Shown: positions 1,510 through 22,298, numbered from the stretch's first letter. The stretch is 64,000 nt of DNA from Candidatus Omnitrophota bacterium (GCA_028712375.1 JAQTQG010000003.1:14619-78618); one strand, 5' to 3'. Notes: generated by a model not told the origin, from the letters alone. Numbers and translations: made by a program.

Positions 1510-1812
1510 ATGATCGCTAAGACTTATAGTTTTGGCCTGCTGGGCCTGGAGGCTTACCCGGTAGAGATTGAAATTGATGTAGCAAGCGGACTGCCGGCGA
1601 TTAACCTGGTAGGGCTGGCCGATACCGCAATTAAAGAAAGTAAAGAGAGAGTGCGCTCGGCCATTAAAAATTCAGGGTTCCAATGGCCTGCCCAAAGAAT
1701 AACGGTAAACCTGGCCCCTTCCGATATCAAGAAAGACGATACCAAAAAACCAGGATTCCCCCCCTACTTTTCCTCTAAAAGTTATACTCAATCTCTATCT
1801 TTCCCCCTATAA
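1510..1812 (+). pseudogene. comM: 5' fragment of Mg-chelatase-like competence protein ComM/YifB, interrupted after codon ~74 (…APSDIKK). The ORF reads into the inserted element and ends at 1812.
   Basis: MIAKTYSFGLLGLEAYPVEIEIDVASGLPAINLVGLADTAIKESKERVRSAIKNSGFQWPAQRITVNLAPSDIKK is the canonical YifB/ComM N-terminus. The remainder of the protein resumes at 20955. Confidence 0.8.
1720..1736. other. Left attachment junction (attL-like): tccGATATCAAgaaaga, 15/17 identical to the right junction
   Basis: Direct comparison of the two comM breakpoints. The shared GATATCAA core is codon-aligned (D-I-K) in both fragments. Confidence 0.6.
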
Positions 1813-3262
1813 ATACCCTGATAACCTTAATTAAGTCGTTAATCAAATCTCTTTTTTCCTGATCATTAGCCTCAGCCCAGGTAGACTTAAACTCCTTATA
1901 GAATCTACTTTGGCTCTTAAAATCATCCTTTTTTGTTTGTTCTCGCTCAAGTTTAATTCTAGCCTCTAAGATAGAGCATCCTATGCTATCTATTTCTTGT
2001 TTTATCCTCTCCAGCCTACTTAGGACGTCCTCATCATCCGATTTTTCAAGGGCGTTAAGTATCCTTTCTTTTGCCCTTTTTTTACCCTGAAGAGAATCTT
2101 CCTTATTTTTTATCTCTCCTCTAAGTCGGGTAATTTCTATCTGGGAATTTATTTTAAGATGTTTGAATAAATAAGATTCATCTGAAGATAATCCTTCCAC
2201 GTGTTTGAAAATCTCTTCCAGCACCTTATTTTCTAGAAAATCTTTACGATAATTTTTTCTATGCCTACACTTTCCGGGGTTCGTTCTTCTAAGAGAACAG
2301 GCATAATAATACAGATTTCCCCCGATCTTCTTCTGGCTCTTAGTTTGCTTCTGAACTAATTGGTGTCCACACTCACCGCACTGGGCAACATCCCTGATAA
2401 AGAATCCGGGAGCAATAAGTCCAACCTGAGCATGATTCTGGAAGTTCTGTTTTAAAATCTCCTGGGCCTTGGTAAAAACATCTTCACTAATTATCTCTGG
2501 ATGTTTTTTCTCATAGGTTTTTCCCTTTACCATCATCCTGCCTGTATATTTAACATTCTTTAGTATCCGTCTAATCTGCGTGTCTCTTATCAAAAAAGGT
2601 AAAGCGATCTTCTGATTTATCAATTCTTTTACTACTCGCTTATTACTCTTAAACCTGTTATACAGCTCGAAAATTAATCTTACTTTCTCGGCTTCTTCTT
2701 CAACTATAACAAAATGCTTGTTCTCTGATCTATAACCAAATGGAGGATACCCGCCGAAGTTTGTCCCATCCCGAGCAACCTTAATATATCTAGCAGTTAG
2801 GTTACGTTCTCTTATAGTATTTAATTCCATCTCGGCAAAGATCGCAGTTATCTGCATTACAAGTTTCCCCATATCACTAGAGGTATCAAAGGGCTGAGTA
2901 GCTGAAATGAAGACAACTTTGTTCTGCTCAAACTCTTTAAACAAGGTTAGCGTATCAAGAGCAGACCTTGAAATTCTATCAAGACGCCAAACCAATAGGG
3001 CTTTAACCTGGCCTTTGGCGATATCAGCCCTCAGCCTTTGTAATTCAGGCCTTTCGGTGTCGCTACCGCTTAGTTTATCAATATAGAAATCGGAATCTGT
3101 AAGAGGAAGATACCCGTGCAGCTTAGCGCTGTTTAAAATACCTTCCTTCTGCATATCAAGCCCAACCCTATTTACTTCGGCCTGCTCAAGCGTTGAAACT
3201 CGGAGATACGCTTTCGGTTTTATCTGTTCTGTGTTCATTAGTTTTATTTTGCCTTCTTTCAA
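1775..3262 (-). CDS. Large serine recombinase (integrase)
   Basis: N-terminal resolvase domain with catalytic serine context (YLRVSTLEQ). Long recombinase domain. Cys-rich zinc-ribbon (CGECGHQL…YYACSLRRTNPGKC). C-terminal coiled-coil. 495 aa. Stop is 45 nt from the att core. Confidence 0.85.
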   Translation of the reverse strand: MKEGKIKLMNTEQIKPKAYLRVSTLEQAEVNRVGLDMQKEGILNSAKLHGYLPLTDSDFYIDKLSGSDTERPELQRLRADIAKGQVKALLVWRLDRISRSALDTLTLFKEFEQNKVVFISATQPFDTSSDMGKLVMQITAIFAEMELNTIRERNLTARYIKVARDGTNFGGYPPFGYRSENKHFVIVEEEAEKVRLIFELYNRFKSNKRVVKELINQKIALPFLIRDTQIRRILKNVKYTGRMMVKGKTYEKKHPEIISEDVFTKAQEILKQNFQNHAQVGLIAPGFFIRDVAQCGECGHQLVQKQTKSQKKIGGNLYYYACSLRRTNPGKCRHRKNYRKDFLENKVLEEIFKHVEGLSSDESYLFKHLKINSQIEITRLRGEIKNKEDSLQGKKRAKERILNALEKSDDEDVLSRLERIKQEIDSIGCSILEARIKLEREQTKKDDFKSQSRFYKEFKSTWAEANDQEKRDLINDLIKVIRVFIGGKIEIEYNF

Positions 3263-3397
3263 CTATCTTTTTTACTATCTCCCAAAAATGATCTTCGTTT
3301 TCGTTCTTTACTAAATTAGATTTCATTTACTTTTCTCCTTGCTCTATACTTTGTCCTAAACATTGTCTTTTTTACAGTGTAAGATCAAAAAAAATCC

Positions 3398-3913
3398 TTA
3401 CTTGTTCTGGCTGATCAAAGTCACCATCTGTATATTCTCGAAATTCTTTCTACTTTCTATCTCAAGTATTTTATCCGCTTTATCTATCCGGTCATCAATT
3501 TCGTTGCAAATATCCAAATACCGGGTGACATTATCCAAAAGCTGTTGATGATCAGCCTTATGGTCTTCTTTTACAACGCCTAATCGTAGGACCAGATCAG
3601 CATATGACACTTTTCCAGTCGGTATCTCATGACCTTTTAAGACAATAGGAGAATCTATGATCTGTTTTCTTAAATTAAGAAAGTCCTTTATCCTCTTAAG
3701 CGACATCCCTATCATCTTCATAGTAAGGACTTGTTTTATTGTGTCGACTACCTCTCGGCCATATACCCGGTATCTATTCTCCATCTTTTCCGGTGAGAAC
3801 AATCCATAATCCTCGTATTTTCTGAGCTGCTCGCTGGATATATCAAAGCCTTGACGCTGCAACTCTTCGGCTAATTCCGTTCTTAAAAGTCCATCTACTG
3901 GTGATTTATCCAT
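3398..3913 (-). CDS. MerR-family HTH protein, candidate regulator or recombination directionality factor
   Basis: LRKYEDYGLFSPEKMENRYRVYGREVVDTIKQVLTMKMIGMSLKRIKDF resembles the MerR N-terminal HTH. Sits adjacent to the serine integrase. Confidence 0.45.
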   Translation of the reverse strand: MDKSPVDGLLRTELAEELQRQGFDISSEQLRKYEDYGLFSPEKMENRYRVYGREVVDTIKQVLTMKMIGMSLKRIKDFLNLRKQIIDSPIVLKGHEIPTGKVSYADLVLRLGVVKEDHKADHQQLLDNVTRYLDICNEIDDRIDKADKILEIESRKNFENIQMVTLISQNK

Positions 3914-4061: not shown

Positions 4062-4370
4062 TTACGTCTTTTTAAGTGGCGTACCATCTGAATCTACCAT
4101 CCTATTTGAAACAATTAGAATTAGATCGATTAACCACCACATGCCAAGACCTCCAAGCGTGCATAATTTCAATATCCCTAACCCTACGTAACCAAGATAG
4201 AATCTATCAAATCCCCAATATCCGAGAAAAAGAGAAAGCAATAACGCCACTAACCAACTTTTACCTTCTTTCTGTAGCCCACTAATTGATCTTCCAGATA
4301 CTGCACAACCGCACTTAACGCAAATAACGGCTTCATTGTCTATCTCTGCACCACATTTTTGACAAAACAT
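4062..4370 (-). CDS. Zinc-ribbon + TM2-domain small membrane protein
   Basis: N-terminal [10 protein letters not shown]…CVKCG zinc ribbon. [35 protein letters not shown] matches the TM2-domain pattern. Confidence 0.55.
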
Positions 4371-4392
4371 TAAAGCCTCCTTTATCTTAAAT

Positions 4393-4764
4393 TTATCTTC
4401 CAGTTATAGAATTAATTATAGTCATAGGATGGACAAACCACAGAATAAGAAGTATTGTGAAAATTGTCCCCATAATTACGCCAAACATAGCCCTACCCAT
4501 TCCGTGTTTTTCAGGGTTTCTCTTAATGTCCCTTATCGCGAGAATACCAAATAGCAAAGCAAACGGAGCTGGAATAAAAAGAATGGAAAAGAAAGCTAAA
4601 TAGCCCGCTGTAATAGCATATCCTGATCTTCCCACTGGCAATAAAGCACGAACAAGGGCATCCTGTCCTGGATCCTTGTTTATTTTTGCTCCTGTAGGAA
4701 CTCCGCACTTCATACAAACAACAGCATCGTCTTTAATTTCTCCACCGCATTTTCTACAAAACAT
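4393..4764 (-). CDS. Zinc-ribbon + DUF4190-like small membrane protein
   Basis: [10 protein letters not shown]…CMKCG ribbon almost identical to the neighbour's. C-terminal Gly-rich TM hairpins ([16 protein letters not shown]). Confidence 0.5.
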
Positions 4765-4835
4765 TTTGCTCCTCCCTTTTATTTCCGAAACCAGGTCTTT
4801 TATTCCTTAGTATTTTAGCTATATGTAGATAGCTC

Positions 4836-5228
4836 TTAATTCTTTCGGACACATTCTGCCTCGACTATATTCCCCCCAGGCATTACTGTGAACATTTTAG
4901 TTCCCGTGGTTCCACAAACAGACGGTGCTGCAATAATCCCATATTCGTTAGGAAATAAATTTACTCCATAGTAGTAGCCATTCACTGTTTTGCTATTGTA
5001 AGCTTCAAAATTAGCGAAATATTGAGTAACCTCATCTCCAGTAGTAGGATATTGCCCCCCGTGGGAAGATGCATAAACCTCAAGCGCTGTAGATATATAC
5101 CTAACCGTTGCTTTTGCAGCAGCTTCATTTTTTGCTATATTATTTCCACAACCCATTACAAAACCCCCAATCAGGACACCCATTAACACAATCCAAACTT
5201 TTCTCATTCTACTCCCTCCTTTTTTCAT
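4836..5228 (-). CDS. Lipoprotein, function unknown
   Basis: Signal peptide with lipobox (LIGGFVMGCGNN), then a soluble domain. Confidence 0.45.
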   Translation of the reverse strand: MKKGGSRMRKVWIVLMGVLIGGFVMGCGNNIAKNEAAAKATVRYISTALEVYASSHGGQYPTTGDEVTQYFANFEAYNSKTVNGYYYGVNLFPNEYGIIAAPSVCGTTGTKMFTVMPGGNIVEAECVRKN

Positions 5229-5279
5229 ATATTATCACCTAATTTAATAGGTGTAAATAGAAAAGACCGACAATAGTAG

Positions 5280-5531
5280 GTGTTCAAAGAGAGGATTTTA
5301 TTGGAAAATGTTAATATGGAAAACATCAATATCAGGTTCGGTAAACATTTGAGGGAATTAAGGAAGGAACGGGAACTGACACAAGAAGAGCTTGCTGAGA
5401 TTTCGGGGCTTGACTATAAATATATCCAACGTCTGGAAGGTAAAAAGCCTTCTTCTCCTACCCTAAATTCATTAGAAAAGATTGCTAAAGCCTTTAATAT
5501 AAGACTCTCAAAATTACTTAAATTTAATTAA
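5280..5531 (+). CDS. XRE-family (Cro/C1-type) HTH transcriptional regulator
   Basis: GKHLRELRKERELTQEELAEISGLDYKYIQRLEGKK is a classic HTH_3. Divergent from the lipoprotein gene. Confidence 0.75.
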   Translation: MFKERILLENVNMENINIRFGKHLRELRKERELTQEELAEISGLDYKYIQRLEGKKPSSPTLNSLEKIAKAFNIRLSKLLKFN

Positions 5532-6193
5532 TACCAACCATCAAGAATACACATTAGAATGCTTAATTCGTTAAGAACGGCCCGAAACTTCTTGTCCTTC
5601 TTGTAGTGCTTGTTATAAGATTCTTCACCTTGGACAACAAGATATTTCTTCTTTTTTGAATCCCAATCGAATTTAATCCTTGTGCCTTCGGCCTTAGTCG
5701 TAACAGTACGGAGTACTCCATCCTTCTTCATTCTCTTAGCATATTCTTCCTCTGGAATGCCGTCTTTACGAGCATGCTTGCCAATAAACTTCTCATGGAT
5801 CTCACGCACATAATCAATCCACTCTTGCTCTTCACTAGGCGGCTTATAACCTTCTGGCAGAATATCACTCATCTTCTTTGCATTACTCACATAACGAGAA
5901 TAAGCCGTAACATCACCAGTGCCGATCCAACGGTCAATGTCACTCTTGCGGAATATGGCTCTACCATCAGCTATACGTGAGAACGGCATCTTTTCCTGAC
6001 GCACCCAACCATCTATAGTCGTTTGTGGCACGCAAAGATATTCTGCTACTTGGACCTTACTTAAATGAATCCTTTTTGTTTTTTTGAATGTTTCGGATTC
6101 TTGGAGGGATTTTTGATCTAAAAACTCACCACAATGACGACACTTAATAGCTTCTTCTTGGATTTCTTCAGCACAAAATGGACATTTCTTCAT
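5528..6193 (-). CDS. Zinc-ribbon + excisionase-family (HTH_17/AlpA-Xis-like) DNA-binding protein
   Basis: N-terminal CPFCAEEI…CRHCG. LSKVQVAEYLCVPQTTIDGWVRQEKMPFSRIADGRAIFRKSDIDRWI matches the excisionase-family HTH. Confidence 0.55.
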   Translation of the reverse strand: MKKCPFCAEEIQEEAIKCRHCGEFLDQKSLQESETFKKTKRIHLSKVQVAEYLCVPQTTIDGWVRQEKMPFSRIADGRAIFRKSDIDRWIGTGDVTAYSRYVSNAKKMSDILPEGYKPPSEEQEWIDYVREIHEKFIGKHARKDGIPEEEYAKRMKKDGVLRTVTTKAEGTRIKFDWDSKKKKYLVVQGEESYNKHYKKDKKFRAVLNELSILMCILDGWY

Positions 6194-6198
6194 ATCAA

Positions 6199-7509
6199 TT
6201 ATTTAGCTAAAGTAAGGCTTTTGAGTGAGTTGGCAAAAAATTCACCAATTATAGATTCTTCATAAGAGATGCTCTCACCTTTAGGTAAGATATAGAGATT
6301 CTTGATTTCATTCATAAGAGAACGGTAATTCTGAACATCAATTGAACTAGAATTAAGATTATCTCTATAGGGGTTAAGTGTTTTCATTTTTTCATTAAGA
6401 TCTTCAATTTTAGAGAAAATTTTATTAATTCTGTTAAAAATTACCTGGTTGGTATAAAACACTTCAAGCTTAATCAACTCTGGCCACATAGCATGCTTAT
6501 TTGCAGTATTAAAATCTTTATAATTCAATAATACCCAATGCGAATCTGCGTATAAATAATTATTTACCCCTATAAAAAGTAGCTGATAGTATTCTTTTAA
6601 ATCCCCATCAAGAGCAGCTAGATAATTACGGGTCACCTTTGCCTCGGGATCTGAATTTATCTTCTTTAAAACAATATCGCCTTTTCGACTCAACTCCTCT
6701 TCTTCGGATTTAATGAATTTTCTAACCTTTTCCTTAGAAATTTCAGTTACATTATCCAATAGCCATTTTGCTACTGTGAGCTTAAAATTTCTTAAACCAC
6801 CATATGAAAGATGCTCTAGGCCATCAATATCAGTAAATTTTTCTACTTCAGGCCGTAGTAAAAGACAAACTTTTATTCCTAATCCATGCATTAAACCATA
6901 CTCATAACTAACACTGTTACTTGCAGAAGATATATCTACAATTCCATATTTACAGGTTTTTATTAATTTGCAAACTTTACAAAGAACAGCTTCAGAGGTT
7001 AATTTATCCTTGGCTATGATTGGAATTAAACCAAACTTAGTTAATATTTCTTTTAAAGCTGATTCGCAATCCTCATATTTTTGATAAGGTATATCTAAAA
7101 AAACGTTATTCTCGTTAAATTCCTGTGTAATTTCATTATTCAAATCACAAGCATCCTTTGCTAAAGGCCCACAGGCATTAATAAAGACTTTTTCCGAATC
7201 CACACTTTTTTGTTTAGGCTTTGTAGCATTCTCCTTGCCACTTTCTTTTTCCAATTTTAACTCTTCTATTGCCATCTGAACTTGACTTTTCATTATGTTG
7301 AATGCTGGTTTCAAAGTATAAGAAGAAAGTGGTAAATTAATTTTGTGGGCATTTTGTATAAAATTATAGTAATATTGTTCATTAAATTTCAACAATGGTG
7401 CAACTTTGTTCGACCAATCAATACATGCTTGCTGAGAAGGAAATCCCTTTTCGACTTCCTCTATATTATAAAGATCTTGTAATTTTTTTAAAATTCCACC
7501 GAAATCCAT
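6199..7509 (-). CDS. Hypothetical protein with central TIR/nucleoside-2-deoxyribosyltransferase-like motif. Candidate effector or sensor of the defence cassette.
   Basis: KVFINACGP…IVDISSASNSVSYEYGLMHGLGIKVCLLL resembles the N…E-G-A-LGKPV pattern of NDT/TIR-like Rossmannoid domains. Otherwise no match I can recognise. 49 nt downstream of the Cas4-like gene. Confidence 0.3.
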   Translation of the reverse strand: MDFGGILKKLQDLYNIEEVEKGFPSQQACIDWSNKVAPLLKFNEQYYYNFIQNAHKINLPLSSYTLKPAFNIMKSQVQMAIEELKLEKESGKENATKPKQKSVDSEKVFINACGPLAKDACDLNNEITQEFNENNVFLDIPYQKYEDCESALKEILTKFGLIPIIAKDKLTSEAVLCKVCKLIKTCKYGIVDISSASNSVSYEYGLMHGLGIKVCLLLRPEVEKFTDIDGLEHLSYGGLRNFKLTVAKWLLDNVTEISKEKVRKFIKSEEEELSRKGDIVLKKINSDPEAKVTRNYLAALDGDLKEYYQLLFIGVNNYLYADSHWVLLNYKDFNTANKHAMWPELIKLEVFYTNQVIFNRINKIFSKIEDLNEKMKTLNPYRDNLNSSSIDVQNYRSLMNEIKNLYILPKGESISYEESIIGEFFANSLKSLTLAK

Positions 7510-7558
7510 CTTTTAATATTTTTAAATATTTGTGGAGTAACCAGCAAGTAAGTTAACA

Positions 7559-8317
7559 TTACCCTACTTTAACTTCTTTCAGTATTTTCTGGTAAATACA
7601 GAAATCACAATCAGCACTATATTCAGGAACTACGGGACCCACCAAGCATTTATACATCTCAATAATCTTAGCCTCAATCCAAGAATCATTTCCGTCATAA
7701 GGTATTATTTTGATATCGAAATCAAGCTTTGCACTAAAGGTATCCCTGTCAGTAAGCCCATTGCAATACACAAAATAACCGGTTGGAGATACATTAAAAC
7801 CGTTTTTTCTGAATAACCACTGGTATATTTCCATCTGCCTCTTATAAGATATCTGCCAATCAGCATCTATGCTTACTTCTTCTTCCTTTGATGTGCTCTT
7901 GTAATCTACGATAAATAGCTGGCCATCCGATGAGGCCCAAACGTCATCTATCCCCCCTGTAAGTAAAAGATTTGTCGGTATGTGCAGATATTCAATACCA
8001 CCATGAAGAGCATCCCGCCAGATATTCAGCTTATCGTGCTTAAAAGGAACCGCCTTGATCCCATTTGCTTCCATAAGAGGATGGCTTATCTGTTTATTCC
8101 GATAGACATCGAATTCTTTCTTCAGTAACTTGTCTACTGCTGAATTTAGTGTAAAAGGGAACCCGGGTGGTTGCCCTACGCCTAATCTTCTGTCTAAATA
8201 GAAGCAACGTGGGCAATTTATGAATAGTTCAATTTTGGAGCGGCTTAGTTTAAATGGAATTTTACTATGCGGATCGAATAAATTCTTAGTTTTTCTACCA
8301 GTATAGTATTTAGACAT
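7559..8317 (-). CDS. Cas4/RecB-like PD-(D/E)xK nuclease with probable Fe-S cysteines
   Basis: GGIDDVW…LFIVDYKSTSK (motifs II/III). YKRQMEIYQW (QxxxY). Cys pairs at both ends (CPRC…CDFC). Confidence 0.6.
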   Translation of the reverse strand: MSKYYTGRKTKNLFDPHSKIPFKLSRSKIELFINCPRCFYLDRRLGVGQPPGFPFTLNSAVDKLLKKEFDVYRNKQISHPLMEANGIKAVPFKHDKLNIWRDALHGGIEYLHIPTNLLLTGGIDDVWASSDGQLFIVDYKSTSKEEEVSIDADWQISYKRQMEIYQWLFRKNGFNVSPTGYFVYCNGLTDRDTFSAKLDFDIKIIPYDGNDSWIEAKIIEMYKCLVGPVVPEYSADCDFCIYQKILKEVKVG

Positions 8318-8461
8318 AGACCTACAGACTATTATTCCCGATTCTTCTTTGGCTATCTGCCGCCGTAGAACTTAAACTAGGCTTGGATTTAGGTTATCTA
8401 TCCATCAGCTTAAAAGCTTCCCGCTTTCAACAATGCTGATGTAGTGAAAAAACTATAAATC

Positions 8462-10351
8462 TTAAGAAATAGTTACAACCGCTTCTGCTTCTGACCAAGT
8501 GTTTATCAAATCCAATATTTTTTGAATTTGAATCGGATAATCTTCTAATGAAAGATCTTCATATTTCATAAAAGCAGCTCCGATCTTGCCATGTTTTTCT
8601 ACTTGATTTGTAGCTATGCCTATAATGTTTTCAAGTTCTGGTGTAATTTTGATGATCTTCCCAATATTTTTATCCAAAGAACCATCAATAAAATCGTTTT
8701 CTTTAAACATTCTGAGCTCAGATTCTTCTTTGTCTGTTTTATTAGGTTTATTTTCTGGAAAGTTAATAGGGTCTATATCATGGATAGCAACGTAAGGAAC
8801 TTTGAACTTATTAAGTACTCGCATAAATATATGTATATTGGTTTTTCCGCCACATTCAACTACGCATATGTTTTTAGCAACGAAGTCATATTTTTTATCT
8901 TTTACAGTAAATTTTGTTGCCCAGAAAGGAACTATAAATTTTTCGGTATCACCTTCAACCAATACTACTTTCTTAGAGAAAAACATTTCACTACGCGATA
9001 AGTCAAAAAGGCTTAAATAACGGAAAACTTTTTTTAACCTATTGTTTTCCTGTGTGGTTTCAGCAGCAAATATATCTCCAACAAATTGAAAGGTATTTGT
9101 TGGACCTTTTTCCTCACGCCCAACGATCACGATATTCTTGTATTCAAACATATCTACAAAAAAGTTAGAATGTGTACAGGCCAATATTTGATCAGTAGTT
9201 GCGATATTCCTTAAAACTTCAATCATCTTTCTTTGGCCATTAGGATGTAAATATAGTTCTGGTTCCTCAATTGCAAGTATAAAATTTTTCACCAAGGCTT
9301 CCGGTTGATCTTCTTCTACAATTACAGTACTTACTGTTTTAGCATAAGCTCTTATATAAGCTAAAATTAGTGCACGTTGAAGACCATGTCCCTTAGAATC
9401 AATCGAAGTAGGCAAAGCGTCATCTAAAGTAATATTCACATCTTTAAATAAATCAACAAGTTCGGGAGTGACGATTTCAATACCAACCTTTGTTCCTGGC
9501 ATACTTTCGCTTATTATGCCTGTAATAGTGCTTTCGAAATCTTTTATTTCCTGTAATCGGTCTGAGTCATCTCCAGTACCTGATTTATTTAAATATTTCT
9601 TCAACCCTTCGAGCTGGTTCTTAACCTCTTCAAATTTTGGATTCTTTAAAACTATCCTATTTGTTAAATCGGTTACTAACTTCCCTAATACAGTTTGCTG
9701 TGTAGTCTTAGATTCATCACATGCATCTTTTACAGCAGGAACCAAATAAAATTTAGGCAACAAATCAGCAAATACTTCTTTGAGGCCTGCAGGATTCTTT
9801 ATCCAATCTGGATCACCAAATTCCACTTTTCCGTCCTCTATACACTTCATAACCCCTTCTTTATATGAAGCCTGGGTCACGGTTCCCTTATCAGTTTTAA
9901 AATAGTCTGGTAAATTTTTATCTTTCACAATTTTTGCAATATCCCCTTTATATTCATCAAATCTTGATAGATCAAAATGGAGCTCGCGAGGCTTAGCTTG
10001 CCATCCATAAAACGTCGTTTCATATTTTTCACTCTGATTATTATACTCTACGACCTTTTTCACTCGAATTGCATGGTCATAGATCCAATGCTTAAGATAC
10101 TTTTGTTTTTCATCATACTCAGTTAATCTATCAAATGTCAAAATAATAGTGATTGGTTCATTATTCTTTTTGAAATAAAAATATTCCTCGTTTATCCCCT
10201 TAACCGAATCTTGATAGAATAATTCTATTGCTCGAAGTATATTGGATTTACCTGCATTATTCTCTCCAATAAACATAGCCAATGAATCTATTTCAATTTC
10301 TATGCTGTCTATGGACTTAAATTTGTGTATTTCGACTTTACGTAACTTCAT
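8462..10351 (-). CDS. OLD-family nuclease: N-terminal ABC/AAA_15-type ATPase fused to a C-terminal Toprim domain
   Basis: KLRKVEIHKFKSI…FIGENNAGKSNILRAIELF (Walker A). C-terminal VVLVEGDTEKFIVPFW … VAIHDIDP (Toprim E and DxD). 629 aa. Confidence 0.75.
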   Translation of the reverse strand: MKLRKVEIHKFKSIDSIEIEIDSLAMFIGENNAGKSNILRAIELFYQDSVKGINEEYFYFKKNNEPITIILTFDRLTEYDEKQKYLKHWIYDHAIRVKKVVEYNNQSEKYETTFYGWQAKPRELHFDLSRFDEYKGDIAKIVKDKNLPDYFKTDKGTVTQASYKEGVMKCIEDGKVEFGDPDWIKNPAGLKEVFADLLPKFYLVPAVKDACDESKTTQQTVLGKLVTDLTNRIVLKNPKFEEVKNQLEGLKKYLNKSGTGDDSDRLQEIKDFESTITGIISESMPGTKVGIEIVTPELVDLFKDVNITLDDALPTSIDSKGHGLQRALILAYIRAYAKTVSTVIVEEDQPEALVKNFILAIEEPELYLHPNGQRKMIEVLRNIATTDQILACTHSNFFVDMFEYKNIVIVGREEKGPTNTFQFVGDIFAAETTQENNRLKKVFRYLSLFDLSRSEMFFSKKVVLVEGDTEKFIVPFWATKFTVKDKKYDFVAKNICVVECGGKTNIHIFMRVLNKFKVPYVAIHDIDPINFPENKPNKTDKEESELRMFKENDFIDGSLDKNIGKIIKITPELENIIGIATNQVEKHGKIGAAFMKYEDLSLEDYPIQIQKILDLINTWSEAEAVVTIS

Positions 10352-12288: not shown

Positions 12289-12501
12289 TCAATGATGCTC
12301 TCTTTCGTATAGAGTGTGCAGTATCTTATATAATCTTTTGCCGTTTGTAACTTGTCCATCACTATTAACAGATACAATCAAATCCTTAGTTGCTAGCCTT
12401 ATCCCGTCATCACCATATTTGAACATTCTTACAACATCACTTAAATAGATAGCAAATCTACCTTTGGGACTTTGAATAATCTTACCTTTTGCACCAGGCA
12501 T
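12289..12501 (-). CDS. Small hypothetical protein (70 aa) upstream of the HNH-DGQH gene
   Basis: ORF only. Same strand, compact spacing. Confidence 0.3.
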   Translation of the reverse strand: MPGAKGKIIQSPKGRFAIYLSDVVRMFKYGDDGIRLATKDLIVSVNSDGQVTNGKRLYKILHTLYEREHH

Positions 12502-12553: not shown

Positions 12554-12886
12554 TTAAGCATATTTCTCTTTGTGCATTTCATAATACAAATCAAATATTT
12601 TCTTTGCAATCTTAGAACCTGTGCTATTTTTAATAATACTCATGGTATTCTCTACTGAACCTATCCAAACTTCTCCTTTATGATTTAAAACGGGTCCATG
12701 TTTTGTTAATTGCCTCACAACCCATTCCCAGTCTTTTTGAAATTCCTCAGGAAAATCTTTTGGTTCTAAAACATGGCAGATTAAATATGATCCAATGAGC
12801 CTTGACCTTACGTCTTTTTGACCAACAGCTAAAGCATAAACAACTTCAAATAATTTCTCTTGTACATAAGAATAACTTTTTCTCAT
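12554..12886 (-). CDS. Hypothetical protein (110 aa), first gene of the minus-strand block
   Basis: ORF only. Confidence 0.3.
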   Translation of the reverse strand: MRKSYSYVQEKLFEVVYALAVGQKDVRSRLIGSYLICHVLEPKDFPEEFQKDWEWVVRQLTKHGPVLNHKGEVWIGSVENTMSIIKNSTGSKIAKKIFDLYYEMHKEKYA

Positions 12887-13139: not shown

Positions 13140-13988
13140 ATGAAGTTTGCCGATGTAAATAAGACCATAATAAAGCTGTGCAAAGATAACAGTTTGGATT
13201 TCTTAGCTGAATGCGAAGCTATCCAATCTGAAGTTGATGCCTGCTCTCTACCTGAAATTCTCGACCATTTAGATAATGCAGGTATCATACCCGAATGTTT
13301 TGATCACGATTCTACGGAAGAAAAGTTGTTCGCAAAGTATTGTGACTCTTTATTAGCTCGTGGGTTACGAGAAATAGGATTAAACGCATATACAATACCA
13401 GAACGCAGTGATGCGGCTGATGTTCAAGGGAAGGGTAGCAATTACACTATTGTTGGAGATGCTAAAGCGTTTCGTCTTAGCAGAACAGCAAAAAACCAAA
13501 AAGATTTTAAGGTCGAGGCTCTTGATAAATGGAGAAATGGATCCGATTTCGCTGTATTAGTAAGCCCTCTTTACCAGTACCCAAATACAAATAGCCAGAT
13601 TTACTCACAAGCAATAAGGTATAATGTTACCCTATTATCTTATACCCACCTAGCTTTCCTAATAAGAAATAGAAATAATATAAAGAATGGCTCTCTTAGG
13701 GGATTATGGGAAATCGGAAAAAAGCTCTCTATTGGTAAAAGCGCCAAATCATACTGGGGATTAATTGACGCTAAAATGCTAGAAATTACCGGGAAGGATA
13801 AAAAGGATTGGGATAGCGCTATAGAAACAGAATACAAATGCTTAGTTCAGAGAGCTAAGGACGAGATTAAGTATTGGGAAGATGAAAAAGCAAAGATATT
13901 AAAATTGTCTCACGATGCGGCAATACAAGAACTAATTAAGGCTAGGAAAATAACAGAAAAGGTCGGAGTTATTAAGCAGTTTATATAG
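13140..13988 (+). CDS. Putative PD-(D/E)xK restriction endonuclease (convergent partner of the methyltransferase)
   Basis: SDAADVQGKGSNYTIVGDAKAF fits a D…(D/E)xK arrangement. The stop is 8 nt from the methylase stop. Confidence 0.35.
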   Translation: MKFADVNKTIIKLCKDNSLDFLAECEAIQSEVDACSLPEILDHLDNAGIIPECFDHDSTEEKLFAKYCDSLLARGLREIGLNAYTIPERSDAADVQGKGSNYTIVGDAKAFRLSRTAKNQKDFKVEALDKWRNGSDFAVLVSPLYQYPNTNSQIYSQAIRYNVTLLSYTHLAFLIRNRNNIKNGSLRGLWEIGKKLSIGKSAKSYWGLIDAKMLEITGKDKKDWDSAIETEYKCLVQRAKDEIKYWEDEKAKILKLSHDAAIQELIKARKITEKVGVIKQFI

Positions 13989-13995
13989 CGTTGAT

Positions 13996-16200
13996 TTAAA
14001 GAGATTTTCTTTTTGTGATTTTGAAGCCTGAATAGAGTGTTGAGATGTAGTCTGAAATACTCATAATCATATCTGCATCACATCCACCCCCAGTGATGTT
14101 CTTATAGTTGACCAGTAACCCAATTCCCTGTGCGAATATTGCCAACCCAATGTCTTTCTCGCTCCATCCCGCTTCTTTCAACACATTACCATAATCAGAT
14201 ACGTAAGAAGATACCTTAGCAATTATTTCGGGGAAAGATATTGATGATTTCTCTTCCATTGTTTTATGACAGACGAAGGTAATGCAAGTATCTATTGCTT
14301 CTGATGTCATGCCGCGAGGTCTTGCTTTTCTTTCTATACTAAGTGGTTGCACGCTTGTGATTATAAAATTAGTGTCTCTAAACGCCCGAATAATTGCGTC
14401 CCATCCGCCTAGTGAGCTATGGCTATAAATAAACGATAGGACGCCGTCATATTTCAAAACTCTCTCAGCTTCTTTTATCGCCTTGCCTAATTCTAAGCAA
14501 TACTTATCGTGAGCTTCAAGGGCCGATTGACTACGAAATGCTGAAGCAACTAATTCGGAACCAAAGCTAGTGTCTTGTTTGTTAAATAAATCCGGATCAA
14601 CATTTTTTAATAAAATTCTTTTCCACGCATAAAAGAAATCCGCTAATATGCTGTAATAAATATTATCATAGTATGGGGGATCTGTTATAATTGCATCAAA
14701 ATAATTGCTCTTAAATGGGAGGTTTTGGGCAATTCCACAGTTTACTTCCGGTTTATATGGAAATTTTTCGATGGAGCTAATGCCTGAAATGATACGGTCG
14801 AGCTTATCCCAAAGATTAGCTGGGCCATTCATTATGGGGTCTATTTCGCCATAATCCCAAAGCATGGGAACGCCTGGACCGCAAAAAGCTCGCCCCATCT
14901 GTTCATTTTGCGAAATCCACATAGATAAACGACAATTCCAATCCACAAGTTGATCAATTAAACTCGCCAATACAGAAATAGCAAAATCCGCCAACTCCTT
15001 TGAATTCTGCTCCTTCAATAACCGATATTCATCTTTCAGACACTTTATCAAAGACAGTAGAACCACCCTCTGCCTTTTATTGACAAAATCACTATGAGTT
15101 TCTATGCCGTAAACTGAGGGGTTCACAATGCCGGACCATTTGGGCAATTTCGTATTTGGAAGACTGCTTTCTAAAGATTTTAATAAATCATTTTCAAGAT
15201 GAGAGATCTTAACGGCTGAGGGAATCAGCAAATCGTTGTTTTCTATAAGCAAAAACTCTTTCCCGGATTTTTCTTTCCGCTTAACAAAAGCAATTAGCTC
15301 ATCTCGAGTGTTGCTAATATCAACTTTTTCAACTATATGAGAGCATTTTGGGCATTTAGCAGACCCATTTCGACCTTCCCAATTTGAGTTATGTTCATAT
15401 TTGTCATCCACTTCCTTAATCCCAATATGCTGTCGATCCTTGGAATTATTTATAATAATTGCTATTCGCTTATTTTTCTTGCGTGACAGCCAGGGTCTTT
15501 TTATTAAATAATATACATATTTACATTTTGGGCATTTTAATGAATACGTCCAGAAATACACTACAGGTGGTCTTTGTTTCGTCTCGGATATCTCACCCTG
15601 CTTACTTCTTGATACCCCTCCCTTCCTCAATGGAAACAATTCATTTGTTGCTTCTTCTAAAGACTTTAAAACACGAATGCCAGATTTCCTTACAATATCT
15701 TCGGCACTTCTTAAATCAACTTTCTGCGAGTATTCAAGATTTGCTTTTTGTATAAAAACAGACAATTCATTCGCATCAATAGAGTATGCTTTGGCACCTA
15801 TGTTGGCTATTTCTAATGGTATTGTTCCTCCACCACCAAACATATCTAGGGCCTTTGGAGGAACTACGTATTGTTCTTTAATAATAGCTCGGGCTTTATC
15901 TATGGCACTTTTGTTTGCATCCCCCGCTAACTCAACCATTATTTCATACATTTTAGGTGTACTTATTTTACATAGAGAAGCAAACGCAAGTATCCTCATA
16001 GCAGAATGAGGTCTTCGAGCCCACCAAACGTGGAGTGTATGCGACGTTTCTCCACTTCGGTATCGTTCCGCAAGACCAGCTATTGAGGCTTCGTAATGTA
16101 AAAGTCCACTATCTATCAAACGATGTTCCGAAGTGTTTGGGATCAGAGCAATTTCAGGACTTGATTGGGTTTTATTTTGACACATACTACTTATTGGCAT
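13996..16200 (-). CDS. DUF1156/COG1743-type adenine-specific DNA methyltransferase with zinc ribbon
   Basis: LHVWWARRPHSAMRILAFASL (DUF1156). LDMFGGGGTIPLE (motif I). CPKCKYVYY…CPKCSH (Zn ribbon). IITDPPYYDNIYY (motif IV DPPY). Confidence 0.75.
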   Translation of the reverse strand: MPISSMCQNKTQSSPEIALIPNTSEHRLIDSGLLHYEASIAGLAERYRSGETSHTLHVWWARRPHSAMRILAFASLCKISTPKMYEIMVELAGDANKSAIDKARAIIKEQYVVPPKALDMFGGGGTIPLEIANIGAKAYSIDANELSVFIQKANLEYSQKVDLRSAEDIVRKSGIRVLKSLEEATNELFPLRKGGVSRSKQGEISETKQRPPVVYFWTYSLKCPKCKYVYYLIKRPWLSRKKNKRIAIIINNSKDRQHIGIKEVDDKYEHNSNWEGRNGSAKCPKCSHIVEKVDISNTRDELIAFVKRKEKSGKEFLLIENNDLLIPSAVKISHLENDLLKSLESSLPNTKLPKWSGIVNPSVYGIETHSDFVNKRQRVVLLSLIKCLKDEYRLLKEQNSKELADFAISVLASLIDQLVDWNCRLSMWISQNEQMGRAFCGPGVPMLWDYGEIDPIMNGPANLWDKLDRIISGISSIEKFPYKPEVNCGIAQNLPFKSNYFDAIITDPPYYDNIYYSILADFFYAWKRILLKNVDPDLFNKQDTSFGSELVASAFRSQSALEAHDKYCLELGKAIKEAERVLKYDGVLSFIYSHSSLGGWDAIIRAFRDTNFIITSVQPLSIERKARPRGMTSEAIDTCITFVCHKTMEEKSSISFPEIIAKVSSYVSDYGNVLKEAGWSEKDIGLAIFAQGIGLLVNYKNITGGGCDADMIMSISDYISTLYSGFKITKRKSL

Positions 16201-16519: not shown

Positions 16520-17134
16520 TTAAACACTAAGTAGCTCGGCACACTCCGCCAGATCTTCCTTCGTTACGCCCGTGTAGATCTGCGTCGTAGAAACGAACTT
16601 GTGTCCCAAAAACTCCTGCACCTTCCGGATGTTGCCACACTTTCGCATTAACTCCGTCCCAACCGTGTGCCTCAGACAGTGTGGTGAATATCTTCCTTCC
16701 AAGCCACTTTCACTAACCCATTTATTAAGGTTTAACTGCACTGCCCTCTGGGTAATTCTTTTGTTGTTCCTTGATAAAAATAAGGGTTCGCTCAAGGAGA
16801 AGCCTTCATCCTTTGCCTTTCTCTGCCTAATGTATTTATCTATGTGGGCTCTAATATCCTTGTTTAATGGTATTTGCCTAATCCTGTCGCCCTTGCCTTT
16901 TATCTCCAACACTTCCTTTGACGAATAGCCGTTGTGCACATCCTTGGCATTAAGGTTGATCGTTTCACTAAGGCGTAATCCAGTATTAAGCATAAGGTCA
17001 AACATACAATAATCACGCCAGGCTTTCCTGCTGTCGGCAAGTGTCTTTAAGAATTGTTTCTTTTGTTCAGAAGTCAGATATCTTATCGTGTTCCTCTTGG
17101 CCATTTCACACCTCTTCGTTAATATACTGCTCAA
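16520..17134 (-). CDS. Tyrosine recombinase, catalytic domain only (no N-terminal core-binding domain). Minimal recombinase or remnant.
   Basis: LRLSE (Arg I). HCLRHT (HxxR). STTQIYTGV (catalytic Tyr). Only 204 aa. Confidence 0.6.
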   Translation of the reverse strand: MSSILTKRCEMAKRNTIRYLTSEQKKQFLKTLADSRKAWRDYCMFDLMLNTGLRLSETINLNAKDVHNGYSSKEVLEIKGKGDRIRQIPLNKDIRAHIDKYIRQRKAKDEGFSLSEPLFLSRNNKRITQRAVQLNLNKWVSESGLEGRYSPHCLRHTVGTELMRKCGNIRKVQEFLGHKFVSTTQIYTGVTKEDLAECAELLSV

Positions 17135-17576: not shown

Positions 17577-19037
17577 CTATGAATTAGCAAAAAAACCTAT
17601 CTTGGTTTTATTGTCCTTAACAAAGATTCCGTCCTGTTCTAGACTCGCTCCAAACAAAAGGTCATTCATTGTAATAATATTCCTTTTCTCTTGAACCAGC
17701 CGTCGCAGGGCGTGGAAGACAGCATTCTTGATGTAGCCACCACTAAACTGAAATTGTCTGGCCAGAACAGCAAAATCAACACCTTGGGCAAGAGTTACCT
17801 TGCTTGGAATATGCGATCGCCAAATTTCTTTGCGTATCTTCTCATCAGGCAAATCAAATTTAACCTTTAAAGTAACTCTGCGTTCAAGTGCAGGATCAAG
17901 CAAATTATCCATGTTCGAAGTTAAGATTACCACTCCTTCAAACCGTTCAATTTCCTGTAGCATAATATTAACAAACCTAATATCGTGTTCTTGGGCTGCG
18001 AAGTTGCGGTTATATAAAATAGAATCCGCCTCGTCAATACAGATAACAACATTATTTTGCTTTGCTGACTTAAAAATAGAAGATATTTGTTTATCGGTTT
18101 CACCAAACCAACGTGAATTTATTTTGGGAAATTCAACAACAAGCAACTTCTTCTTAAGATGTTTTGCTATTGCCTCAGATAACATCGATTTTCCCGTGCC
18201 GGGCGGACCGTAAAAGAGGAAAACCAATCCTTTGCCATTTTTAATTGTTTCTTCTACACCAAGATCTTCAAGTCCTTTATCCTGCAACCCGGATAATAAG
18301 AAACTGACGTTTTTCTTCACATCGAGAGATAGCTTAACATCTTCAAGAGAATATGCCGGATCCTTTAAAAAACCAACCTCTTCGCAAGGGTGTAAATCTT
18401 TTTTATTTTCTGCCCTTCCAGGTCTAGATTCTTTATACTCCCCACTTATCATCCTAGAAAAAACGTCCAACAAAGACGAACTCATCCCGAAACTGACTAC
18501 GGCCGAGTTGTGGTTGTTTCGATAATATGGGTACAAAATAGAATATTTTAAAAGATTGGCATTTCGGTTAAAATAACGAGACAACCCCATTCTCCCGATT
18601 ACAGAATCATTTAAGTCAAAGATCCTAAGGAGCAGATCCCTTGAACAGATATTCTCTTTTAGGTGCAAGAACTCCAAATAAAGGTAATATAGGAGTATTT
18701 GCTTTTCAAAGATATCCAAACCGTATAGCGAGGCAGTTTTTTCTAACGCAAACTTACTGCCCTTAGACATGGAATCCTGTACCCTTTGCCAAAACAAAAC
18801 TTCTTTTGTCTTTATTGTTGAGTCCAATTCTGATACATTCTTGCGGAATGCCTCTACATCATCCTTAGATTTCTTAATAAGAATAATTCTTTTGTTTTGG
18901 TAAAGTTCGCAGATCTTGAAATATTCTTCGATGTATTCTTGGTCACCTGAAAGAAAATTATTTTCCGGCATTACCTTTTCTCCTTTCTTTCTGCACAAAC
19001 TTATCAAAATCCTCAACTGTCTTTTTGAGCCTTTCAT
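17577..19037 (-). CDS. AAA+ ATPase (classical AAA clade) with ~250-aa N-terminal domain of unknown function
   Basis: LFYGPPGTGKSMLSEAIAKHL (Walker A). VVICIDEADSIL (Walker B). SRH-like TSNMDNLLDPALERR. Confidence 0.7.
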   Translation of the reverse strand: MKGSKRQLRILISLCRKKGEKVMPENNFLSGDQEYIEEYFKICELYQNKRIILIKKSKDDVEAFRKNVSELDSTIKTKEVLFWQRVQDSMSKGSKFALEKTASLYGLDIFEKQILLYYLYLEFLHLKENICSRDLLLRIFDLNDSVIGRMGLSRYFNRNANLLKYSILYPYYRNNHNSAVVSFGMSSSLLDVFSRMISGEYKESRPGRAENKKDLHPCEEVGFLKDPAYSLEDVKLSLDVKKNVSFLLSGLQDKGLEDLGVEETIKNGKGLVFLFYGPPGTGKSMLSEAIAKHLKKKLLVVEFPKINSRWFGETDKQISSIFKSAKQNNVVICIDEADSILYNRNFAAQEHDIRFVNIMLQEIERFEGVVILTSNMDNLLDPALERRVTLKVKFDLPDEKIRKEIWRSHIPSKVTLAQGVDFAVLARQFQFSGGYIKNAVFHALRRLVQEKRNIITMNDLLFGASLEQDGIFVKDNKTKIGFFANS

Positions 19038-20289: not shown

Positions 20290-20392
20290 GTGTCCCCCTA
20301 CTTAGGGGGTAGCGAATAACCTATATAGGAGACAGTAAATAACCCACTTAGGGGGTAGCAATAACCCATATAGGGGTAGCAAATAGTATAAC
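20290..20392. repeat. Iteron-like direct repeats (TTAGGGGGTAGCRAATAACC, ~2.5 copies) plus palindrome TCCCCCTA-CT-TAGGGGGT. Candidate origin or operator for the adjacent replisome-organiser gene.
   Basis: Read directly: copies at 20302-20321, 20348-20366, partial at 20371-20390. Palindrome at 20293-20310. Confidence 0.6.
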
Positions 20393-20402
20393 TAAATCCA
20401 TA

Positions 20403-20831
20403 TTAACTTGGCTTCACCCATATCATCCTGCCCTCTATGTACGGGTAATCTTTGCCGTTCTTCACTTCAGATCCCTCCTTAATATCTATACGAATCTTCC
20501 AGCTTTTCCGCTTGCCTTTGGTTACTGTTATCACCCACTTTCCAGCGTCCTGCTCAATCCCAATTTTTCTTCCATCCCGGGTTATCATTTTTTTCTCCAA
20601 TAGCTTTTTCTTTGTTCTAGGTACGTGAGATAATGGTATACCAGTGCTATTTTCGATTTGGCTGTTGGAAATCCAGTCCAAATCCTTTTGGTACCCTAAG
20701 GTCTTCATAACAATAAACCACCACAAGGCGTGCTCGTACGGACTAAGGTAACGAGCAATCCAAACATAACCCATTCTCAACAAACGCCAAGGCAGTTTTA
20801 TGAAACGTACATTATCTTTTAGATCTGCCAT
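20403..20831 (-). CDS. Phage replisome-organiser / DnaD-like N-terminal HTH protein (putative replication initiator)
   Basis: WRLLRMGYVWIARYLSPYEHALWWFIVMKTLGYQKDLDWISNSQIENSTGIPLSHVPRTKKKLLEKKMITR resembles the phage replisome-organiser winged-helix pattern. Iterons lie immediately downstream. Confidence 0.5.
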   Translation of the reverse strand: MADLKDNVRFIKLPWRLLRMGYVWIARYLSPYEHALWWFIVMKTLGYQKDLDWISNSQIENSTGIPLSHVPRTKKKLLEKKMITRDGRKIGIEQDAGKWVITVTKGKRKSWKIRIDIKEGSEVKNGKDYPYIEGRMIWVKPS

Positions 20832-20954
20832 TTATTCAGCTCCTTTCCTGGTCATTTCCCCAAGGGAAAATACCACTTTTCTTTCTTTTTTATTGGTAAT
20901 TTTTAATTGCTATAACTTTAAGATAATTAAAGAGATGAGATATATCCTTGCGGA

Positions 20955-22298
20955 ATGCACTCTGATATCAAAAAAGAGGGCGCTTGTTTTGATTTAGCCA
21001 TTGCCCTGGGCATTCTGGCGGCAACCGGGCAGATCGGCAAAGAGCGCCTTCAAAACTACTCTTTTCTGGGAGAATTATCCCTAGACGGCCAATTGCGGCC
21101 GGTGCATGGCGTTCTGGCGATAAGTTTAACTATCTCTAAATTCCCGGTTAAGAGCCTTGTTCTTCCCGAAAAGAACGCTCAGGAAGCAGCGGTTATACAA
21201 GAAATTTCTGCCTGGCCGCTCAAAAACTTAAAAGAAGTGGTGCAATTTTTAGCTGATCCCGGAAGCCGAAGCCCATTTAAATTAGATATTAACCACGTTT
21301 TTAAAGGCGGTGGGAATTATACTTTGGATTTCTCCGAAGTTAAAGGCCAATATTTTGCAAAAAGAGCGCTGGAAGTGGCGGTATCCGGGGGGCACAATAT
21401 TATTATGCTCGGTCCGCCCGGCAGCGGGAAAACTATGTTAGCTAAAAGGATTCCCACTATTATGCCTAACCTTTCCTTAGAAGAAGCTCTGGAAATCACC
21501 AAAATCCATTCCGTAGCCGGGACGCTATTAAATGATAATTTTATCAGAACCCGGCCCTTTCGCTGCCCGCATCACAGTATTTCAGATACCGCCTTAATCG
21601 GAGGAGGCAGCGTGCCTAAACCCGGAGAGATCAGCCTGTCTCATTACGGCGTGCTCTTTCTGGATGAACTCCCGGAATTTAACCGCAAGGCCCTGGAAGC
21701 ATTAAGACAGCCGCTGGAAGACAACCTGATTTGTATCAGCCGCGTAAAAAGAACCCTGGTATTCCCGGCTTGTTTTATTTTAGCCGCCGCGCTTAACCCT
21801 TGTCCGTGCGGCAATTATTTTAACCCGCACAAACCATGCCATTGCAACCCGACAAAAATCAAAAATTACCTGGGGAAAATTTCCGGGCCGCTGCTGGATA
21901 GAATCGACCTGCACATTGAAGTCCCGCAGGTAAAACACCGGGAATTATCAGACGCGCGGGAAGCAGAATCATCGGCAGCCATCCGGCAACGCGTAGAAAA
22001 CGCCCGCGCAATTCAACAAAAAAGATTCTCCGCCATAGGCAAATCCGGCTCCACAAGCATATTTTGTAACGCCCAAATGACCAATAGGCTCATTAAAGAA
22101 TATTGTGTTTTAGATGCCGAGGCTAGTAACTTATTAAATATGGCAATAACCGAATTGGCCCTATCGGCAAGGGCTTATGATAAAATACTTAAGGTGAGCC
22201 GGACGATTAGTGACCTGGCAGGCAGCCAAAACATTAAATCCGAACATGTTGCCGAGGCAATTCAATACCGCTCTTTAGACCGGCAGCTCTCCGGATAA
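20955..22298 (+). CDS. comM: 3' portion of ComM/YifB: AAA+ Mg-chelatase-like ATPase domain
   Basis: Starts HSDIKKEGACFDLAIALGIL, continuing exactly where the 5' fragment stops. IMLGPPGSGKTMLAKRIP (Walker A). VLFLDELPEF (Walker B). C-terminal ComM tail. Confidence 0.85.
   Translation: MHSDIKKEGACFDLAIALGILAATGQIGKERLQNYSFLGELSLDGQLRPVHGVLAISLTISKFPVKSLVLPEKNAQEAAVIQEISAWPLKNLKEVVQFLADPGSRSPFKLDINHVFKGGGNYTLDFSEVKGQYFAKRALEVAVSGGHNIIMLGPPGSGKTMLAKRIPTIMPNLSLEEALEITKIHSVAGTLLNDNFIRTRPFRCPHHSISDTALIGGGSVPKPGEISLSHYGVLFLDELPEFNRKALEALRQPLEDNLICISRVKRTLVFPACFILAAALNPCPCGNYFNPHKPCHCNPTKIKNYLGKISGPLLDRIDLHIEVPQVKHRELSDAREAESSAAIRQRVENARAIQQKRFSAIGKSGSTSIFCNAQMTNRLIKEYCVLDAEASNLLNMAITELALSARAYDKILKVSRTISDLAGSQNIKSEHVAEAIQYRSLDRQLSG
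20961..20977. other. Right attachment junction (attR-like): tctGATATCAAaaaaga
   Basis: Matches the left junction. Confidence 0.6.

Follow-up and report, generated by a model that had tools for sequence, protein, structure and literature searches.

We analyzed a 64,000-nucleotide stretch of DNA from an uncultured Candidatus Omnitrophota bacterium (GCA_028712375.1, JAQTQG010000003.1:14619-78618; hereafter the window), in which the gene comM/yifB is interrupted by an insert of 19,233 bp that carries a large serine recombinase gene at its left edge. The public contig measures 95,522 bp and also occurs in a Logan assembly. An earlier reading of the sequence alone (the sequence-only reading) had described comM as split by a serine-recombinase element of ~19.2 kb, and the coordinates and sequences on which it relied hold. 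The host gene is cut after codon 75. Its 5′ fragment (1510..1730, plus strand, codons 1–~74) aligns with positions 2–74 of the TIGR00368 model, and its 3′ part (20964..22298, plus strand, codons ~73–515) with positions 67–499; in a relative contig with an intact comM (L001, GCA_026387315.1), collinearity extends on the left to 1737 and begins again on the right at 20960. The N-terminal open reading frame (ORF) starts at 1510 and reads ...ITVNLAPSDIKK; a further 27 unrelated codons then bring it to its stop at 1812 and to a length of 100 aa. The ComM reading picks up again as SDIKKEGACFDL... at 20961, where TCT encodes Ser, and extends to 22298. The ORF translations thus agree with the two breakpoints, ~1730 and 20961, that had been read from the sequence.

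The two junctions carry copies of one short repeat. At the left attachment site (attL), the 17-mer TCCGATATCAAGAAAGA (1720..1736, plus strand) contains the 8-bp identical core GATATCAA at 1723–1730; at the right attachment site (attR), the 17-mer TCTGATATCAAAAAAGA (20961..20977, plus strand) contains the same core at 20964–20971. Both sites were located by a repeat search, and attL additionally by a comparison of junctions over seven elements and by a dyad centre, as described below. The 17-mers are identical at 15 of 17 positions, as the sequence-only reading had stated, and are the sole two matches in the whole 64 kb (chance expectation 0.09; two matches in 0/100 shuffles). Within the first 24 kb, the core itself has no copies other than those at 1723 and 20964. 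When the halves are joined at the core, 1548 nt in frame encode a 515-aa ORF. There is no stop and no frameshift in the 515 codons, and both halves of the gene are undamaged. The joined product contains the Pfam domains ChlI, Mg_chelatase and Mg_chelatase_C, and it scores 640.5 bits against TIGR00368 (cut-off 362.4), covering positions 2–499 of 499. At the junction, the peptide reads APSDIKKEGACFDL, which equals the consensus of an alignment with 119 homologues, none of them gapped at this place (0/119). Precise excision would therefore rebuild the gene in frame, as had been claimed: joining the halves in silico gives a single, continuous, full-length ComM ORF of 515 aa where about 500 aa had been expected. 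The GC content of the insert, proposed as a further check, is 36.5%, against 43.7% and 42.7% in the flanks.

The interruption is an insertion and not ancestral sequence, also as proposed. The comM of the closest relatives is intact (515 aa), the nearest ComM homologues (83–85% identical) are intact proteins of 508–516 aa, and more than 100 intact homologues were found. The empty site is present in a syntenic relative, L001, where both flanks of the window are collinear: L001 800–2687 corresponds to window 1–1737 and L001 2669–4007 to window 20960–22298. The closest intact comM (83–85%) is nearer to that of the window than is the comM of most other interrupted genomes, a pattern that requires repeated gain or loss and not one ancient insertion. 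Downstream of the gene, synteny with L001 continues to window 30054. A 751-aa TPR-repeat gene (22507–24762, minus strand) lies directly downstream of comM and is absent from L001; synteny is back at 24855, and 22299–24854 is thus a second indel beside the comM locus.

The cut falls at residue 75, within the ChlI domain (residues 20–142), and the element sequence does not restore this domain, adding 27 unrelated codons at attL and just M-H at attR. The M comes from an in-frame ATG at 20955, in the right arm of the element, which opens a 447-aa ORF, annotated in the public record as a YifB-family ATPase, from which a truncated protein could be made. No outward promoter for the truncated comM was seen in a sigma-70 scan upstream, although the sigma-70 model may not apply to this phylum. 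Because the ChlI/Lon-like domain is split, with a 100-aa stub on one side and, on the other, a 447-aa ORF without the first ~70 residues, the ComM helicase is presumably inactive while the island is in place. Nero et al. are said to have identified ComM, in 2018, as a branch-migration helicase that acts in natural transformation in Vibrio and Acinetobacter. The same role is putative in Omnitrophota.

The recombinase gene (1775..3238, minus strand) encodes 487 aa from an ATG, or 495 aa from an alternative TTG start at 3262. The sequence-only reading correctly placed its end just inside the left junction; the distance from the stop codon (1775–1777) to the core is 44 nt and not the 45 nt that had been given. 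The protein has the Resolvase (PF00239, E = 6.5e-32), Recombinase (PF07508, 1.5e-14) and Zn_ribbon_recom (PF13408, 1.2e-8) domains of the large serine recombinases (serine integrases). It contains the motif YLRVSTLEQ, in which the catalytic serine, S23, is invariant, together with R21 and other residues, in the nine members of its clade (see below). The cysteines C295, C298, C322 and C332 are likewise invariant across the clade alignment. A profile of the clade matched solved structures of the TP901-1 integrase catalytic domain (E = 1e-32) and of the A118 integrase C-terminal domains (E = 2e-14), and the catalytic domain has 41% identity to TP901-1 integrase 3bvp with a TM-score of 0.80. In an AF2 model (pLDDT 78), a catalytic fold is followed by a long E-helix, a recombinase domain, a zinc ribbon and a helical hairpin of ~90 residues. 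The hairpin occupies the coiled-coil position; β strands lie at residues 293–322, long helices at 374–464 and returning strands at 478–493. The top Foldseek matches to this model were full-length serine integrases (9dxd, 9y66, Bxb1 9iu2, A118 4kis and PhiC31 9rah; best E = 1e-19). The protein is a bona fide large serine recombinase.

A protein search returned only eight relatives above 42% identity to this integrase, the next match being at 29%, and the nine proteins form a discrete clade. Seven of them, including that of the window (100%), abut a comM 5′ fragment: L140/L142 (~80%), L002/L003 (79%), L004/L005 (70%), L147 (50%), L007/L146 (48%) and L006/L008 (42%). Of the remaining two, one (P0127, seen in L149, L150 and L087; 49%) is encoded on a free circular genome, and the other (P0125, 56%) lies on a short contig in which the comM context is not readable. 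All seven integrated elements break comM at one and the same codon, following D-(I/L/V)-K-K or G-I-K-K. The integrase stop codon lies a few tens of nucleotides from the junction in five of the seven; in L002/L003, an extra gene stands between integrase and junction. The hosts differ, with ComM N-termini that are 65–81% identical to that of the window, and synteny of the left flank (DUF212, LysM/YkuD) is conserved among them. No comM was found near more distant serine recombinases in about 130 loci from the same scans. Specificity for this comM site is therefore a property of the whole clade. Since seven distinct elements, with integrases 42–80% identical, are inserted at the same comM codon, comparative evidence, and not adjacency alone, ties the integrase to its site. 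Among the 119 aligned homologues, the targeted residues, NLAPxD(I/L)KKEGxxFDLAIA, hardly vary, which would make this stretch a dependable bacterial attachment site (attB).

Apart from the integrase, these elements have no gene in common; no homologue of the window's cargo was found in the relatives, which instead carry small-terminase, large-terminase-like, primase and internal-virion-protein-like genes. In every relative that could be checked, a small resolvase/invertase-type serine recombinase (166–192 aa) is encoded just upstream of the large integrase (L002 9108–9608, L004 2291–2863, L006 9013–9591, L146 3641–4168, L147 2850–3359 and L149 6734–7282).

The free circular genome offers a candidate for the attachment site before integration. 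It is ~14.6 kb in length, unusually small for a tailed-phage-like genome, and its circularity is indicated by a 141-bp terminal overlap in L149 and by permuted contigs from six assemblies. It is listed in IMG/VR, encodes large-terminase-like and internal-virion-protein-like proteins, and contains no comM sequence. Three recombinase genes lie in a row on this circle: that of the small serine resolvase and that of the comM-clade serine integrase, with a gene for a tyrosine recombinase of 545 aa between them. At 43 nt past the integrase stop codon, compared with 44 nt for the core of the window, the circle carries ACATCAATAAG with a core-like ACATCAA, a candidate phage-type attachment site (attP). 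The sequence TTGCAA flanks it at ±17–22 nt around an AA dinucleotide. For the window element, the attP reconstructed from the two junctions is ...CTTGCGGAATGCACTCTGATATCAAGAAAGACGATACCAAAAAACC... (longer form AGATATATCCTTGCGGAATGCACTCTGATATCAAGAAAGACGATACCAAAAAACCAGGATTCC), and the attB reconstructed in comM is ...AACCTGGCCCCTTCCGATATCAAAAAAGAGGGCGCTTGT... (longer form AACGGTAAACCTGGCCCCTTCCGATATCAAAAAAGAGGGCGCTTGTTTTGATTTAGCC).

Comparison of the integrated elements narrows the point of exchange. On the host side, the junctions vary (GACCTA, GATATT, AATGTA, GGCATA), and from AA(G/A)AAA onwards the sequence is derived from the element. By these host-side variants, the exchange took place 3′ of core base six, either at the AA with which GATATCAA closes or immediately past it. 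A dyad scan put the best centre on this same AA both in the reconstructed attP of the window (12/25 matches) and in the attP of the free circle (13/25), scores that are each within chance when taken alone (p about 0.1). We therefore dropped dyad symmetry as stand-alone evidence and used only the agreement of the two centres with each other and with the junction data. The crossover dinucleotide, expected to be non-palindromic for a serine integrase, is most likely the AA at 1729–1730, judging by these comparisons. A weak 19-nt inverted repeat, TCTAAAAGTTATACTCAAT / ATTGCTATAACTTTAAGA (1774–1792 and 20905–20923), lies ~40 nt inside each element end. In the circular form, its arms would stand about ±45 nt around the attP centre, one of them overlapping the integrase stop codon, and its score of 12 is marginally above chance (null 95th percentile, 11). 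A 20-nt repeat of the attR-proximal arm at 18832 showed no extension and was judged to be a chance match.

The insert holds 22 ORFs at a coding density of 89%, with no obvious pseudogenes. The sequence-only reading had called this cargo unusual, and that description is apt: the recognizable genes are largely for defence and none is for a virion. All features given here are on the minus strand unless stated otherwise. Beside the integrase is a MerR-family helix-turn-helix (HTH) regulator (3398..3913, 171 aa; PF13411, E = 3e-9). Three small envelope proteins follow (4062..5228), identified by Pfam and by a paralogous 63-nt repeat, D1. They are a zinc-ribbon + TM2 protein (4062–4370), a zinc-ribbon + DUF4190 protein (4393–4764), both assigned by Pfam, and a 130-aa protein (4836–5228) that appears secreted or lipoprotein-like from its N-terminal translation, read by eye without a prediction tool. 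The TM2 and DUF4190 neighbours have a common zinc-ribbon N-terminus (the 63-nt repeat, 75% identical) and different membrane domains. Next come a repressor-like XRE/Cro-type HTH regulator (5280..5531, plus strand, 83 aa; PF01381, E = 1e-12) and a 221-aa protein with a zinc ribbon and an HTH_17 domain of excisionase-like fold (5528..6193; PF12728), which matches phrog_66, "excisionase and transcriptional regulator" (E = 4e-8).

A co-oriented defence block, recognized with Pfam and PADLOC, occupies 6199..10351. It encodes a 436-aa protein without known family (6199–7509), a Cas4-like PD-(D/E)XK nuclease (7559–8317; PDDEXK_1, 7e-13) and an Old-family ATPase-TOPRIM nuclease (8462–10351; PADLOC "Old", 2.8e-88). 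A weak PADLOC match to PDC-S35 was also seen in this block, in the 436-aa protein. As the three genes are co-oriented and tightly spaced, they may constitute a three-gene Old-type system and not a stand-alone Old. A 503-aa protein (10709–12220) has an N-terminal HNH motif, with a weak sub-threshold match to PF01844, and an internal DGQHK reminiscent of DGQHR/DndB-like domains; it has no match in PADLOC or NCBIfam. Its position between the Old nuclease and a HindIII-type pair suggests that it may be an undescribed defence gene. Two small ORFs without family follow (12289–12501 and 12554–12886), also with no PADLOC or NCBIfam match. The region 13140..16200 is a Type II restriction-modification pair by its sequence families, with a HindIII-family endonuclease (13140–13988, plus strand; PF09518, E = 1e-84; PADLOC REase_II, 4e-67) and a 734-aa DUF1156-type methyltransferase (13996–16200; PADLOC MTase_II, 4e-197). 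The HindIII site AAGCTT is not avoided, with 30 sites observed vs 29 expected in the host and 5 vs 6 in the element.

A second recombinase of the element, a tyrosine recombinase of 204 aa consisting of the catalytic domain only (16520..17134; PF00589, E = 7e-39; XerC/XerD-like, below cut-offs), lies between the methyltransferase block and an AAA+ ATPase gene. No inverted or direct repeats were seen that might serve as its sites. The ATPase (17577..19037, 486 aa; PF00004, E = 1e-26) is IetA-like (PADLOC IetA, 6e-35), and no IetS partner was found for it in the element. The last gene before attR (20403..20831) encodes a 142-aa replication-initiator-like protein with the lambda O N-terminal domain only (PF04492, E = 1.5e-14; PHROGs "replication initiation O-like"). 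Several further ORFs match no family. Searches for the gene sets that define prophages and conjugative or mobilisable elements were negative. Pfam found no virion, packaging or lysis genes in any of the 22 ORFs, nor did PHROGs in the 10 that were otherwise unannotated, and ORFs of at least 70 aa gave no Pfam or NCBIfam match to a relaxase, a coupling protein or type IV secretion genes. Of the features of phage satellites (PICI, P4-like and similar), the element has an integrase and regulators as well as the Rep-O N-terminal-like gene; no helper-hijacking gene was recognizable among its ORFs, several of which are without a family. Rfam and tRNA scans of the element returned nothing.

Taken together, these data make it very probable that a 19,233-bp integrative element entered comM by conservative site-specific recombination, catalyzed by its own large serine recombinase. 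The circular form would carry attP ~44 nt beyond the integrase stop codon. This site would have recombined with attB inside comM codons 73–75 (S-D-I-K-K), the exchange most likely taking place at the AA ending the core, and integration would have split the N-terminal ChlI/Lon-like domain into the stub and the 447-aa ORF. Recombination by serine integrases is conservative, with no bases added or removed, so that attL × attR recombination would regenerate attB exactly; it would rebuild the intact 515-aa comM and release the circle. The element may still be able to do this today. Its integrase module belongs to a clade otherwise found on small temperate phage-like Omnitrophota elements that all use the same attB, here joined to a defence cargo. 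An integrase module of a phage clade, combined with defence cargo and with no virion or packaging genes, suggests a defence island that is either phage-derived and defective or satellite-like.

Several observations weigh against this interpretation. Serine integrases recombine attP with attB unaided by host factors; excision normally needs a recombination directionality factor (RDF) encoded by the element, and none was identified among its ORFs; no RDF family is recognizable by sequence. We speculate that the MerR-family gene (3398–3913) is a candidate regulator or RDF and that the zinc-ribbon/HTH_17 gene (5528–6193) is a candidate excision cofactor. The window element is without the small serine resolvase gene of its relatives and has the MerR-like gene in its place. 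The attR junctions of the relatives were not retrieved, their contig flanks ending short of the far element ends, so a common right-hand boundary rests on the window, and the gene at that boundary, for the Rep-O-like protein, found only itself in a search of 5.8 billion proteins. The chance-level dyad scores belong here as well. Pattern scans of viral and metagenome collections with the attP-right arm detected no attP or free form of the window element, yielding only further attL junctions (L140/L142, L143/L144) and chance matches. Public data contain no empty-site allele of this strain, and the exact 515-aa protein is absent from the protein collection, given that the 447-aa ORF forms a singleton cluster.

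Some of these points would suit a reading with the same origin and a different present: a decayed prophage that is now a fixed remnant, with comM inactivated for good and the island passed on by vertical descent for its defence genes. The lack of an identified RDF, the reduction of the Rep-O-like protein to its N-terminal domain and the databases without a free or empty-site form fit such a remnant, as does the failure to find terminase, capsid, tail or lysis genes in an element whose relatives have terminase-like and virion-like genes. Decay is harder to reconcile with an intact integrase ORF that keeps all clade-invariant residues, with undamaged att sites and comM halves that together give a full family-model match, and with the high coding density and lack of obvious pseudogenes. 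The preservation of integrase, att sites, comM halves and coding density points to recent integration or to continued selection for excisability. We consider a fixed remnant a serious possibility, though clearly short of an even chance.

Another proposal concerns what the excision would be for. In a regulated genetic switch ("regulated gene integrity" or active lysogeny), conditional excision would restore ComM and be followed by re-integration, as for phi10403S at Listeria comK. The locus has the comparative features used by Mageeney et al. 2020 (PMC7192596), namely a Pfam domain broken without repair, several independent elements of a tight integrase clade at one position, and many uninterrupted alleles. 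In addition, both gene halves are intact, and yifB is among the candidate genes in that work. None of this evidence bears on conditional excision, and the same pattern is expected of a selfish element with a reliable, conserved attB. Such an element would also gain from disabled transformation-mediated curing, a loss of ComM having been proposed to shield integrated elements against it (PMC12378983; PMC11441513). A switch thus seems improbable to us on the present data. We would give only slightly more credence, and still call unlikely, the idea that the island is more than a dead prophage, namely a defence element free of structural genes that took over its integration module from a clade of small temperate phages of Omnitrophota. 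By sitting in the attB that these phages share, it would disable ComM-dependent curing by transformation and physically take away their landing site, and the phages could mobilise it as a satellite.

Two other explanations fare much worse. An assembly or binning artefact joining unrelated contigs is conceivable for a metagenome-assembled genome, but we give it hardly any weight, as the gene halves at the two junctions complement each other and share orientation and reading frame, a single relative contig is syntenic with both flanks, and equivalent attL junctions occur in independent assemblies from other samples. A transposon insertion, with the 8-bp repeat as a target-site duplication, has in its favor the short direct repeat around the insert and the example of the AbaR islands in Acinetobacter comM, which, as Tn7-like transposons, carry Tns genes and have terminal repeats and a target duplication. 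It is scarcely credible here, given that no transposase or Tns-like genes were found in any ORF of at least 70 aa, that the element ends have no terminal inverted repeats, that the similarity at the junctions exceeds 8 bp and reaches 15/17, and that seven elements with a serine integrase as their only common gene, at a fixed distance of ~44 nt, sit at the same codon.

Site-specific integration by the element's own serine recombinase remains our preferred account. The kind of event is already known. What is new is its occurrence in this phylum, the definition of an integrase clade that is specific for comM and has a candidate attP, and the swap from phage to defence-island cargo, one integrase module being found on both small phages and a defence island. 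Current understanding is unchanged by these results. For a candidate phylum without genetic tools, they provide a well-delimited element whose boundaries are known exactly and whose attB and attP can be predicted. The small serine-integrase clade, with its conserved target in a gene that is nearly universal, could be of use for landing pads.

The sequence-only reading had called comM a well-known insertion hotspot, and the literature bears this out. Insertions of mobile genetic elements in comM are reported from many Gram-negative bacteria (PMC12378983). Serine-recombinase integrative elements that disrupt comM/yifB have been catalogued by TIGER (Mageeney et al. 2020, PMC7192596), where yifB is a new "regulated gene integrity" candidate and several comM-breaking elements appear in the serine-integrase tree. 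The island Bca1.12.comM of Beutenbergia cavernae is likewise a serine-recombinase island in comM that leaves the Pfam domain unrepaired (PMC7192596). Its core (gacct, at F-D-L) is found some 7 codons further downstream than the window site, and both core sequence and codon differ. Its recombinase is listed as S-Core type, whereas the window element belongs to another phylum and another integrase clade and has a defence cargo.

Other systems resemble the window element in mechanism. In Listeria, A118 and phi10403S use a large serine integrase of the TP901-1/A118 type to enter a competence-related gene, comK, which excision restores (PMC7192596; PMC3556126), and the C-terminal domains of the window integrase match the A118 integrase structure 4kis. 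The Listeria phages are complete and inducible and have the RDF Gp44; in the window element, no virion genes were found and no RDF was identified. Their target is a regulator, and that of the window element a helicase. Bacillus subtilis SPβ (spsM) and skin (sigK) similarly split a gene that precise excision by a serine integrase rebuilds, and skin is a degraded prophage that keeps little beyond its recombination module (PMC7192596). Their excision is developmentally programmed in the mother cell, whereas no developmental context is known for Omnitrophota.

The AbaR islands of Acinetobacter baumannii disrupt the same target gene by another mechanism; the Tns genes, terminal repeats and target duplication were not found in the window element. 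They too are cargo-rich and inactivate comM, with a proposed protection from removal by transformation (PMC11441513; PMC7508600). Another inserted element is the Salmonella prophage ST35, whose core, ...aaaaaaataaccatt, ends about 8 codons upstream of the window site in the same conserved comM stretch (TIGER supplement, PMC7192596). It is a full prophage with a tyrosine integrase in a gammaproteobacterial host. Unrelated integrases thus converge on comM codons ~60–85 (window 1687–1730 and 20964–21010). With the clade described here, the recurring association of mobile elements with comM comes to include three unrelated integrases, those of Salmonella ST35, the Beutenbergia island and the window clade, within about 25 codons of one gene.

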